A stretch of 29,568 nt of DNA. Origin: a virus. Its lineage: Duplodnaviria; Caudoviricetes. Shown one piece after another: positions 858 to 19,665 of this stretch; the stretch's first letter is position 1, and each line of letters begins with the position of its first letter. The position numbers and the translations under genes were made by a program. The notes under the pieces are model-generated. The model was given only the letters and a program-made list of their open reading frames with translations. It had not been told where the DNA came from and searched no databases. Location: positions 1 through 29,568 of the IMG/VR virus record IMGVR_UViG_3300042863_000477; one strand, written 5' to 3'.

Positions 858-1376
858 ATGGGTAAAGTTGTTAGAGTATATGATGGAACAGCATGGCAAG
901 ATCTTGCTATTTCTACCCCCGTCGGTGCTCAGGGAACTACTGGCACACAGGGAACAACTGGCACCCAAGGAACTACTGGACCACAAGGAACTACTGGCGC
1001 ACAAGGAACTACAGGAGCTCAAGGAGCTACTGGTACACAGGGAACTACAGGAGCGCAGGGAACAACTGGGGCTCAAGGTACAACTGGCCAAGCAGCGCTT
1101 ACAAACTCTTCAATTAATTCAAATATAACGTTAGTAGCGGCAAATAGATATTTTGTAGATACAACAGCAGCAAGATCTTTAACGCTTCCAGTATCTCCAT
1201 CAGTAGGAGACGAAGTTCAAGTTTTAGATGCATCAGGAACGGCGGGAACGTATAATATTACAATAGTAAGCGGCGGTAAGATTAATGGAACAACACAAGA
1301 CGCAACTCTTGATGTAAATGGAGTAGCAGCAGTATTTGTATATACTGGATCTACATATGGATGGAGAATGGGATAA
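858..1376 (+). CDS. Collagen-like fibre stalk with C-terminal 'TLPxSP' adaptor domain
   Basis: 19 G-X-Y triplets (GTQ/GTT/GAQ), then [32 protein letters not shown]...[11 protein letters not shown], paralogous to 3386 and 5262. Confidence 0.8.
924..1094 (+). repeat. Collagen-coding 9/18-bp degenerate tandem repeat
   Basis: Repeating GGN-(A/G)CN-CAR-GGA-ACN-ACN units. Confidence 0.9.
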
Positions 1377-2911
1377 TGACAATAAAATATTCAAGTTTAA
1401 GCGGAGTTCCAAAAGGAACTACTGCTAACCGTCCAGATTCTCCAGCTGTTGGCGATGTTTATTACAATGGAACATTAGGAATTATGGAAATTTACACGGC
1501 TACTGGATGGTCAGCGCTTGCAGGAATCGCACCAGACTCTCCTGTAGATGTCTCTGCCGTAGACATTGGCACAGGTATTGCTTATAGTACGGGTTCTGCA
1601 GATATATCATTTACTGCTGGTGGAGGCGGGCCTTCTACAAGCTTTATCGTTACTCCAACTCCAACAACCTCTCCAACGACATTTACTGGTACATCTTCTC
1701 CAGTAAGAGTGACTGGTTTAGAAAACGGAACTTCATACTCATTTACAATTCAATCAAGAAATGGAATTGGTACTTCTAATTCAAGTGCTGCTACTAATTC
1801 TATAACAGCTACATCAGTTCCAGCAGCTCCAGTATCTGTTACAGCAGTTCCAAGATCTAATAGCGCAATAGTTTCTTTCACTCCAGGAGCATCTGGCTCA
1901 AAAGCAATATCTTCATATACAGTTACATCATCTCCAGGAAATTTTACAGGTACAGGCGCATCTTCTCCCATAACAGTGACTGGTCTTACAAATAATACTG
2001 CTTACACATTTACAGTAACAGCAACAAACGCTAATGGAACATCAACTGCAAGTACTGCTAGCTCTTCAACAACACCCATACCTGCTACTTCTACAGTTGA
2101 ATATCTTGTAGTTGCAGGTGGAGGTGGCGGAGGAGTCGGATTTGCTGGCGGTGGAGGTGCAGGTGGATTTAGAACAGCATCTGACTTTGCAGTATCTTCT
2201 GGATCTGCTATTACAGTTACAGTAGGAGCTGGCGGCTCAGGTGGATATAATGCATACAGCGGATCCGACCCAACAAATGGAAATAATTCAGTATTTTCTA
2301 CAATAACCTCATTAGGTGGAGGATCTGGTGGATCTAACACTGATTGGGGAGTCTCTAAAGCGCCACAGGTAGGAGGCTCAGGAGGCGGACAAAGAGGCGG
2401 ACAAGGATCTGGAGCTGCTGGAACCGCAGGGCAAGGAAATGCGGGCGGAAATGCTGGCCCAAGCAATTCATACCCATCAGGCGGCGGCGGTGGTGGAGCT
2501 GGCGCAGTCGGCAGCAACGGCACTGGAACTACCTCTCCAAGCTCAACTGGTGGTGCTGGAGGAGCTGGAGCATCTTCTTCAATTACTGGATCTGCAATAA
2601 CATACGCTGGCGGAGGCGGCGGCGCAGGTGACGCAGGCGGCGGTGGAGCGGGTGGTTCGGGCGGAGGCGGCGCAGGAGTAAGAACTTACTATGGAACTCC
2701 AGCTAGTGGAACAGCAAATACTGGAGGCGGTGGAGGTGGCGGACAAAGTAGCACGCCTGCAGGAGCTGGAGCAGGCGGATCTGGAATAGTTATCATTAGA
2801 TATCCAAATACATTTTTAGATGCGGTATCTACAACAGGATCACCAACAATTACTAATACTGGTGGTTACAAAATTTATAAATGGACAGCATCAGGAAGTA
2901 TCACATTTTAA
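1376..2911 (+). CDS. FN3x2 + Gly-rich fibre/adhesin protein (tip type A)
   Basis: Start reassigned to ATG 1376 (TAATG overlap). GTTANRP..PAVGDVYYN module, two FN3 repeats (VTGLENGTSYSFTI, VTGLTNNTAYTFTVTATNANG), then VEYLVVAGGGGG...GSGIVIIRY...GGYKIYKWTASGSITF. Confidence 0.85.
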   Translation: MTIKYSSLSGVPKGTTANRPDSPAVGDVYYNGTLGIMEIYTATGWSALAGIAPDSPVDVSAVDIGTGIAYSTGSADISFTAGGGGPSTSFIVTPTPTTSPTTFTGTSSPVRVTGLENGTSYSFTIQSRNGIGTSNSSAATNSITATSVPAAPVSVTAVPRSNSAIVSFTPGASGSKAISSYTVTSSPGNFTGTGASSPITVTGLTNNTAYTFTVTATNANGTSTASTASSSTTPIPATSTVEYLVVAGGGGGGVGFAGGGGAGGFRTASDFAVSSGSAITVTVGAGGSGGYNAYSGSDPTNGNNSVFSTITSLGGGSGGSNTDWGVSKAPQVGGSGGGQRGGQGSGAAGTAGQGNAGGNAGPSNSYPSGGGGGGAGAVGSNGTGTTSPSSTGGAGGAGASSSITGSAITYAGGGGGAGDAGGGGAGGSGGGGAGVRTYYGTPASGTANTGGGGGGGQSSTPAGAGAGGSGIVIIRYPNTFLDAVSTTGSPTITNTGGYKIYKWTASGSITF

Positions 2912-2919
2912 TATATAGA

Positions 2920-2948
2920 TAGATTTAAGCATTAAATAATGCTAAAAT
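2920..2948 (+). promoter_or_regulatory. Putative extended -10 promoter (TGcTAAAAT) overlapped by the palindrome AGCATTA-aa-TAATGCT
   Basis: TAAAAT at 2943-2948 is preceded by TGc; SD AGGAGG at 2963-2968. Confidence 0.5.
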
Positions 2949-2976
2949 AAGACATACTAAACAGGAGGTAATAAAT

Positions 2977-17417: not shown

Positions 17418-17443
17418 TGTTATAATATTTAAGGTGGTATAAT
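17418..17443 (+). promoter_or_regulatory. Two tandem extended -10 elements (TGtTATAAT, TGgTATAAT); the second predicts a leaderless mRNA
   Basis: TATAAT at 17421-17426 and 17438-17443; ATG 17450 follows the second after 6 nt. Confidence 0.6.
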
Positions 17444-17449
17444 TTTAAA

Positions 17450-18697
17450 ATGGGCTCAACATCAAAGGGTTTTAGTTTTCCCGCTTATTCAGATCCGCCA
17501 GATATTCCTGCGGACATTCAATTACTTGCACAAAATATTGATACATATTTAACAGCAAACCCAGGACCACAAGGAACTACTGGAACGCAGGGCACACAGG
17601 GCCTTCAAGGAACTACTGGAACACAGGGAACAACTGGAGCACAAGGTGCAACAGGAACCCAAGGAACAACTGGTACACAAGGAACAACTGGAGCACAAGG
17701 CGCAACAGGCACACAGGGTGAAACTGGTACACAAGGAACAACTGGTACTCAAGGAACAACTGGCGCACAAGGCACAACAGGTTCACAAGGTGAGACGGGT
17801 ACACAGGGCGCAACGGGAACTCAAGGAACAACAGGAACTCAAGGTGTTGCTGGAACTGGTGTTGATATTTTAGGAACTTATGCAAGTTTAGGTGCGCTAC
17901 AGTCTGCACATCCAACAGGAACTTTAGGTGATGCATACATAATCACTGGAGATCTTTATGTCTGGACTGGTTCTGCTTGGACTAACGTTGGTCCAATTCA
18001 AGGGTCTCAAGGAACAACTGGCACACAAGGTTCTACTGGATCACAAGGAACAACTGGAGCACAAGGCGCAACAGGCACACAGGGTGAAACTGGTTCACAA
18101 GGAACAACTGGTACACAAGGAACAACAGGCGCACAAGGCACAACAGGTTCACAAGGCGAAACAGGTACACAGGGCGCAACGGGATCTCAAGGAACAACTG
18201 GCCCACAAGGAACAACAGGCGCACAAGGCACAACAGGTTCACAGGGCGAAACAGGTACACAGGGCGCAACGGGATCTCAAGGAACAACTGGCCCACAAGG
18301 CATAACAGGCACACAGGGTGCAACAGGTACACAGGGTGCAACAGGCACACAGGGGGCAACTGGAGCGCAAGGAACAACTGGACCAGAAGGACCAGCAACT
18401 GTTCCTCAAAATACCAAAAGCGCTAGCTATACACTGCTTTCTTCAGATAACGGAAAATTTATTAGTATAACAACTGGTGGAATTACAGTTCCTGCATCAG
18501 TATTTACAGCTGGTCAAAATGTTGTTATATATAACAATTCTTCTTCTTCACAAACAATTACACAAGGATCTGGAGTTACAATGAGATTTGCATCGTTTCT
18601 AAGCACTGGAAATAGAACAATTCCTAGATATGGACTTGCAACAATACTTTGTGTTGACACGGATACATTTGTAATATCTGGCCCAGGACTGAGCTAA
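17450..18697 (+). CDS. Collagen-like fibre protein with two triple-helix segments and a C-terminal adaptor domain
   Basis: Anchor [31 protein letters not shown] runs interrupted by [23 protein letters not shown]-terminal [11 protein letters not shown]...FVISGPGLS. Confidence 0.85.
17564..18397 (+). repeat. Collagen-coding tandem repeats, including a 90-bp duplication (18121-18210 vs 18211-18300, 1 mismatch)
   Basis: Direct reading; non-repeat interruption at about 17861-18001. Confidence 0.9.
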
Positions 18698-18699
18698 CT

Positions 18700-19665
18700 A
18701 TGACATATGCTGCTATGGCATTAGGTGTCAATACTAATGGCGGTCCAGAAATAACTGGTGGCGGAACAGTTACATCAGATTCAACATACTACTACAGAAC
18801 ATTTACATCTAGCGCAACAATAACAGTTCAAAACGGACCTATTGCATACGAGTCTATTTGTATCGCAGGAGGAGGCGGTGGAAACTTTCTGGGCGGTGGC
18901 GCTGGTGGAGCTGGTGGAGCTGGTGGATTTTTATATAATACTGGTAGCTTTTCTAACTTTACTTATTTTTTTAATATTGGAGCTGGCGGTCCTGGTAACT
19001 CTGAAGGATCTGGCGGACAAGGAAGTGATTCTATTTTTGATTCCTCAACAGCAAAGGGTGGAGGAATGGGGCCAAATTATTACTCAACATGGCCATTAGT
19101 TGGTGGCTCAGGCGGTGGCGGAATTGGTGAAAGCGGTTATAACACTGGAAGCAATGGAACATCTGGTCAAGGAAATAAAGGTGGGGATGCATCTCCTGTA
19201 AATTCTCAATCTTATGGTTATGTGGGATCAGCTGGCGGAGGTGGAGCAGGAGCAGTTGGATCAAACAATAGCGGAACAAATAATGCAAATGGAGGCAATG
19301 GTGGAAATGGAACAAACGCATATTCTTCTTGGGCATCTGTTACTTCAACTGGTGTTGGCGGTTATTATGCAGGCGGAGGTGGCGGTGGAGCTGTTTATGG
19401 ATCAAAAGACAGCGTAGTCGGGGCTGATGGAACTGCTGGAACAGGAGGATTAGGCGGAGGAGGCAATGGCGGAAAATCTACATCTGGAAAACCAGGTTTT
19501 TCTTTAGGTACAGCTGGTGCAGCAAATACTGGCGGCGGTGGTGGTGCAGGTGGAGGATGGTATGAAATTATTGGTGGAAGCGGATCTGGTGGTGGTGGTT
19601 CTGGAAGAAATGGCGGATCAGGATTAATTATAATTAGATATCTTAAATCAGCAGTTGGTGGATAA
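18700..19665 (+). CDS. Gly-rich fibre tip protein (type B) without FN3
   Basis: SDSTYYYRTFTSS...ICIAGGGGG...GSGLIIIRYLKSAVGG. Confidence 0.8.
   Translation: MTYAAMALGVNTNGGPEITGGGTVTSDSTYYYRTFTSSATITVQNGPIAYESICIAGGGGGNFLGGGAGGAGGAGGFLYNTGSFSNFTYFFNIGAGGPGNSEGSGGQGSDSIFDSSTAKGGGMGPNYYSTWPLVGGSGGGGIGESGYNTGSNGTSGQGNKGGDASPVNSQSYGYVGSAGGGGAGAVGSNNSGTNNANGGNGGNGTNAYSSWASVTSTGVGGYYAGGGGGGAVYGSKDSVVGADGTAGTGGLGGGGNGGKSTSGKPGFSLGTAGAANTGGGGGAGGGWYEIIGGSGSGGGGSGRNGGSGLIIIRYLKSAVGG

Follow-up and report, generated by a model that had tools for sequence, protein, structure and literature searches.

Paralogous glycine-rich domains of one phage probably occur in two circularly permuted orders

Beta-sandwich domains are known to undergo circular permutation, and natural permutation by duplication is known from the swaposins and the DNA methyltransferases. 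The glycine-rich beta-sandwich that concerns us here has been described in phages and in animals. In the main text of PMC9608196, the tail fibre gp24 of cyanophage Pam3 (PDB 7YPX, 7YFW) is presented as a TNF-like beta-sandwich with a glycine-rich lattice, whose variable distal loops are proposed to bind the host. The tail wing brush of mycobacteriophage Bxb1 is gp33 according to the main text of PMC13243192, and we infer that chain Q of the Bxb1 tail tip (PDB 9D93) is this protein. Polyglycine or brush domains of several phages are discussed in four reports (PMC13243795, PMC13252515, PMC13243192, bioRxiv 10.1101/2023.11.25.568672), and an animal receptor domain, the glycine-rich (TG) domain of ALK/LTK (PDB 7LS0, 7NX3, 7LIR), has the same arrangement. 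Here we analysed a 29.6-kb contig of a tailed phage (IMG/VR record IMGVR_UViG_3300042863_000477, 29,568 nucleotides, hereafter the window), in which eight paralogous genes encode such domains. We propose, with a probability of about 90%, that the base of the domain is completed by one homologous four-strand segment placed either before or after the core, in a circular permutation whose likely origin is tandem duplication followed by trimming. As in swaposins and DNA methyltransferases, there would be two orders of one fold together with possible tandem intermediates; unlike in those proteins, both orders coexist among the paralogues of a single phage and appear to be exchanged on a common arm.

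The first-pass annotation of the window had described eight tip genes of two types, and the eight open reading frames are present at the starts that it gave, all on the plus strand. In type A, the core is entered at VEYL, VDYL or IDYV only 5-6 residues past the second FN3 domain, and the closing strand is followed by a tail of 35, 38 or 32 residues that ends in the motifs reported earlier. This is the order of gene 1376 (1376..2911; N-terminal module, two FN3, core 2096-2803, tail segment 2804-2908), gene 5744 (5744..7285; two FN3, core 6467-7168, diverged tail segment 7169-7282) and gene 7589 (7589..9163; two FN3, core 8315-9064, tail segment 9065-9160). In type B, the segment precedes the core and the protein terminates 6-7 residues past the closing strand. 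Four genes with two FN3 domains have this order, namely 3763 (3763..5205; head segment 4495-4578, core 4594-5181), 9945 (9945..11714; head segment 10839-10922, core 10938-11690), 11714 (11714..13477; head segment 12614-12697, core 12713-13453) and 13477 (13477..15123; head segment 14371-14454, core 14470-15102), and so has gene 18700 (18700..19665; head segment 18751-18831, core 18850-19641), which lacks an FN3 arm; the placement of the head on such an arm is thus right for seven of the eight tips. The segment is found at one end only, the three type A heads scoring at background on both tail and head profiles. Six of the eight tip genes pass the curated Pfam cut-off of PF21722 (Gly_rich_2), which is 24.3 bits, with 28.6-74.2 bits; 13477 (23.5 bits, E 6e-5) and 18700 (22.0 bits, E 2e-4) lie just below it. 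The cores contain 35-39% glycine. All eight tips are PF21722 domains; a beta-sandwich base with a glycine-rich lattice between the entry and closing strands was predicted by modelling for two of them.

The relationship between the two segments was analysed with profiles of 91 A tails and 19 B heads, all taken from strictly single-core proteins at 94 viral loci. When the A tails were aligned with the B heads, a check that the first-pass annotation had proposed, the two profiles matched with a probability of 95.3% (E 2.3e-8) over 35 columns, against 8% for the reversed control and less than 1% for unrelated flanks. The segments of the window were then scored on profiles built without window sequences, with 200 shuffles each. 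The tails of 1376, 5744 and 7589 reached 64.5, 20.2 and 39.4 bits on the tail profile and the window B heads 40-49 bits each on the head profile, and 0/200 shuffles scored as high in any case. The B-head profile was also matched by the tails of 1376 (17.0 bits) and 7589 (15.9 bits; 0/200 shuffles for both), and not by that of 5744 (1.4 bits, 30/200 shuffles); among the five window B heads, 18700 alone matched the A-tail profile (7.4 bits, 1/200 shuffles). On a larger set of 27 B-like heads, which included a few linkers from tandem proteins, a profile made from tails only gave more than 10 bits in 16 cases, compared with 0/27 reversed and 0/270 shuffled sequences. In the opposite direction the signal was weaker, with 2 of 92 tails above 10 bits and 19 above 5 bits, a level reached by 8 reversed controls. 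Some tails, at loci L013 and L048, are almost head-like. At the level of sequence profiles, these comparisons show that the A tail and the B head are homologous segments in changed order.

Permutation by duplication requires one segment per core, also in tandem A-A, B-B and A-B forms. In a set of 129 proteins classed as complete with a single core, 89 carried a tail only, 26 a head only, 13 fell below threshold and 1 had segments at both ends, where 18.8 would be expected under independence; this sole exception is a protein of 1634 residues with further cores that were overlooked by the counting script. By eye, a diverged tail could be recognized in 12 of the 13 proteins below threshold, and the thirteenth comes from L027. 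In that locus (L027:3591-5096) and in L036:2141-3805, tail strands 2 and 3 are separated by an inserted LamG-like domain of ~200 residues, and the tail segment is completed at the C-terminus, past the insertion. The listed multi-core proteins hold one segment per core in 16 of 16 cases, short heads being judged by eye; they comprise eight A-A forms, two B repeats, three short-head repeats and three combinations of A with a short head. A-B doubles, whose two cores are separated by two complete segments in direct succession, occur at L086:1164-2915, L093:883-2559 and L100:810-3170.

Structural models were obtained for one tip of each type, 1376 for type A (predicted local distance difference test, pLDDT, 94.7; predicted template-modelling score, pTM, 0.92) and 9945 for type B (pLDDT 90.4, pTM 0.91). 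The tail of the former is predicted to form strands at residues 249-251, 255-259, 262-267 and 271-274, and the head of the latter, with similar spacing, at 4-6, 9-12, 16-21 and 25-30. Because four strands are predicted in each, the piece is more than the moving hairpin of the first-pass annotation: a segment does change place, and it is longer, about 28-35 residues. Both models were compared with solved structures by sequential structure alignment against 48,161 representatives, and both matched chain Q of the Bxb1 tail tip and Pam3 gp24 at Z 13-13.7, far above the next rows. Chain Q, from an actinobacterial siphovirus as is likely here too, was the best match (Z 13.5 for A, 13.7 for B); gp24 gave Z 13.3 with the A model (root-mean-square deviation 2.7, 165 aligned) and Z 13.0 with the B model (3.9, 186 aligned), and the ALK/LTK domain middling values of 4.7-6.5. 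Searches of PDB sequences returned nothing meaningful.

The alignments with these relatives differed between the two types. Residues 16-287 of the B model align to residues 38-267 of 9d93_Qa, whereas residues 1-241 of the A model align to 59-267, which leaves the A tail and the first 21 residues of the target (38-58) without a sequential partner. Over the solved members, the alignment of the B model begins at residue 14-17 and that of the A model ends at 241-246, with the start in the target shifted by ~20 residues in Bxb1 and Pam3 and ~50 in ALK; the offset seen in 9d93_Qa thus recurs with 7ypx_A and ALK. Chain Q and the ALK/LTK domain have the B order, unlike the type A tips, and gp24 has it from the third segment strand on, with the A tail unaligned. 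Pam3 gp24 forms a trimer with a helical shaft and a chaperone; the arm here consists of two FN3 domains. Judging from the models, type A is the variant order, and the solved relatives found supply the base strands from the N-terminal side, as type B does. No solved structure in A order was present among the 48,161 representatives, and one may exist elsewhere. The TNF-like module of ALK is reportedly permuted relative to TNF, a permutation different from that between A and B.

Docking predictions pointed to the same site. The C-terminal segment of 1376 (2804..2908, a linker and four predicted strands) and the core of 9945 deprived of its N-terminal segment (10839..10922, also four predicted strands) were supplied as separate chains and gave a docking score of 0.85 against 0.07 for the best control; this pass may owe something to likeness with solved B-order structures. 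Of 157 solved complexes, 116 attained the docking mark, as did 2 of 215 mismatched pairs. At least 93% of the contacts agreed between runs, and the pLDDT of the partners was at least 88. The third strand of the docked tail is predicted to lie antiparallel to the closing strand (279-288) and the fourth on core strand 72-77, and the tail touches residues 33-34 of the B core, which is the start of the cut core, where the head joins in type B. By prediction, then, the old termini are near enough to join, the docked tail contacting both places. Taken with the profile test, the models, structure alignments and docking indirectly support the earlier suggestion that one beta-base is completed from either end.

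The first-pass annotation had placed the permutation inside this array. Both orders proved to be common elsewhere, and the cores of the window group, with weak support, with cores of the same type from outside. Of ~8000 candidates scored per query, 4534 were matches to the A query and 1731 to the B query; a tail was present in 114 of the best 120 A-query matches, and 105 of the best 120 B-query matches ended at the closing strand. Databases already list type A proteins, under the name 'glycine-rich domain-containing protein', and a low-complexity-filtered tblastn search of GenBank phages with the A tip returned 3 records. A Pelagibacter phage is one example of a cultured phage with such tips. 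As far as such matches can tell, the permutation is widespread in environmental phages. The cores of the window are 40-53% identical in every pair. Near-identical FN3 arms bear either order. For the second FN3 domain, 5744 (A) shows 85% identity with 13477 (B) and 65% with 1376 (A); the arm of one relative is 94% identical to that of 9945, its tip merely 42%; L100 has an arm 86% identical to that of 7589 (A), yet carries an A-B double tip; and another relative combines an arm 60-62% identical to a B-gene arm with an A tip. These identities show that the arms do not sort by tip type. Because the arms ignore tip type and the cores are only 40-53% identical, either heads have been exchanged or arms homogenised. 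The array would thus have collected two pre-existing orders, both older than itself.

In a tree of 80 cores, the A and B labels were clustered, with 8 changes compared with 23 in shuffles (0/500 as low); with the doubles added, there were 10 changes compared with 24, and two tail-type cores lay nearest to B cores. The starred branches of the core trees force just 1 label change. It is possible, though rather unlikely, that the order switches back and forth repeatedly, with tandem tips giving rise to tail-type domains in head-type lineages and to head-type domains in tail-type ones. Hints in this direction are the head-lineage core signature of the tail-type cores of L100, L093 and L013, their placement nearest to B cores, and the tail-lineage signature on three head-type cores; recombination inside the core could mimic such flips. 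If they do occur, phages keep a standing pool of both ALK-like adhesin topologies and vary the seating of the head on one arm.

A tandem gene with the arrangement segment-core-segment-core would offer a path between the two orders, in which the middle segment could complete the core on either side, and the core-segment order would remain once the outer pieces were lost. The array may have gained both orders through head exchange on the common FN3 arm. In both orders, segment strand 3 is predicted to pair with the closing strand and strand 4 with the third core strand, so that the fold would be kept. The chain passes into the lattice along the entry strand and leaves it along the closing strand. 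The starts of A and B are therefore both expected at the pole of the base, opposite the loops, so that a switch would displace and rotate the head rather than turn it over. The variable glycine-rich loops would face away from the arm in both orders, and the distal ones may bind the receptor, as proposed for Pam3 gp24. By analogy with this protein and other homologues, the tips are likely receptor-binding fibre tips, and a switch likely shifts the angle of the head modestly, without changing its role.

Three other explanations were weighed. The segments might be related and nevertheless act as optional caps at different sites instead of filling one permuted slot, as could be argued from the weak cross-matches of single window segments and from short-head forms that use just part of the segment. 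This is very unlikely given the near-total exclusivity, with one segment per core, the completion of the tail despite the ~200-residue LamG-like insertion in L027 and L036, and the predicted docking of the tail on the headless B core beside the cut site. Slightly less credible still is donation of the segment in trans in the virion, through strand swapping between neighbouring tips or tandem domains, so that the two orders would be assembly joints. The segment does dock as a separate chain in prediction, and tandem proteins have a segment between two cores, but each protein examined holds exactly enough segments for its own cores, and both monomer models are complete and confident. The least probable of the three takes the permutation as real and makes it a recent event, inside this array and from one of its own paralogues. 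The two orders are indeed intermixed within a single cluster and share closely related FN3 arms; against a recent origin stand the 40-53% identity of the cores in all pairs, the tails in 114/120 best A-query matches and closing-strand ends in 105/120 best B-query matches, and the grouping of window cores with same-type cores from outside.

Several points weigh against a circular permutation by tandem duplication, the reading that we prefer. Narrower profiles built from the top protein-search matches (114 tails, 102 heads) aligned in the expected register with a probability of 47% (E 2e-4), and their reversed controls reached 18% and 6%. Just 3 of the 8 individual window segments matched the profile of the opposite type. 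Type A is known from predicted models, and the A and B slots were compared through third structures. Because the loci were gathered by searching with alignments of the two types, the counts are biased and the A/B ratios are not family frequencies; the core-counting script overlooked a core in a few tandem proteins. Support in the core tree is poor (3 of 77 branches starred), and a single origin is not rejected (approximately unbiased test, p 0.39). Finally, location in the virion and receptor binding are presumed from homologues and from neighbouring genes with fibre-like matches.

The portal gene starts at 21968, the prohead protease gene at 23569 and the capsid gene at 24936. The capsid shares ~58% identity with its counterparts in large Streptomyces phages, which makes the host likely actinobacterial. 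The entire fibre/adhesin cluster (1-21539) lies upstream of the portal, and the tail genes are separate, starting at the right end of the window. PF21722 matches occur in nine of the clustered fibre-like genes, in seven of them behind two FN3 domains. The ninth gene (156..665, plus strand), with a small core (258-656), a short head and no tail, was classified by eye as a third form; it resembles the short-head form of the tandem proteins in L040 and L055 and may represent a third cut point inside the segment. Short genes at 858-1376, 3386-3763 and 5262-5744 share a terminal domain of ~100 residues (phrog_31104-like), and each sits immediately before an FN3 tip gene; they are possible anchors or adaptors. 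The N-termini of 5262, 9945, 11714 and 13477 have the same short basic module, a candidate docking peptide that is present too on relatives with A or B tips. Small phrog_7759 genes (2977-3381, 7285-7599) come after tips and are candidate chaperones; in related loci, 56 of 77 stand directly behind a glycine-rich gene of either order. A role as type A-specific chaperone was rejected for the genes at 2977 and 7285, as no association with tip type was found: a phrog_7759 gene stands behind 40 of 103 genes that end in a tail and 11 of 28 that end at the closing strand. The cluster is interrupted at 15163-17416 and 9220-9897 by an unassigned 333-residue gene, a TPR and FkbM methyltransferase gene and a DUF6065-like gene.

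The glycine-rich fold is known, and the A-order topology is new relative to the solved relatives found. The word stem 'permut' is absent from the main text of PMC9608196, PMC13243795, PMC13252515 and PMC13243192, and literature searches returned no account of this permutation; the ALK and Bxb1 structure papers and all supplements were outside their scope and may mention it. Type A tips would add a second topology to a receptor-binding fold common to phage fibres and ALK/LTK. The two end states, tandems, mixed doubles and an insertion in the moved segment together make up a natural series of unusual completeness for permutation by duplication. The segment also sets the domain boundaries for a very large and mostly unannotated family, in which constructs or head swaps that follow the Pfam boundary would remove four predicted strands from type A tips.

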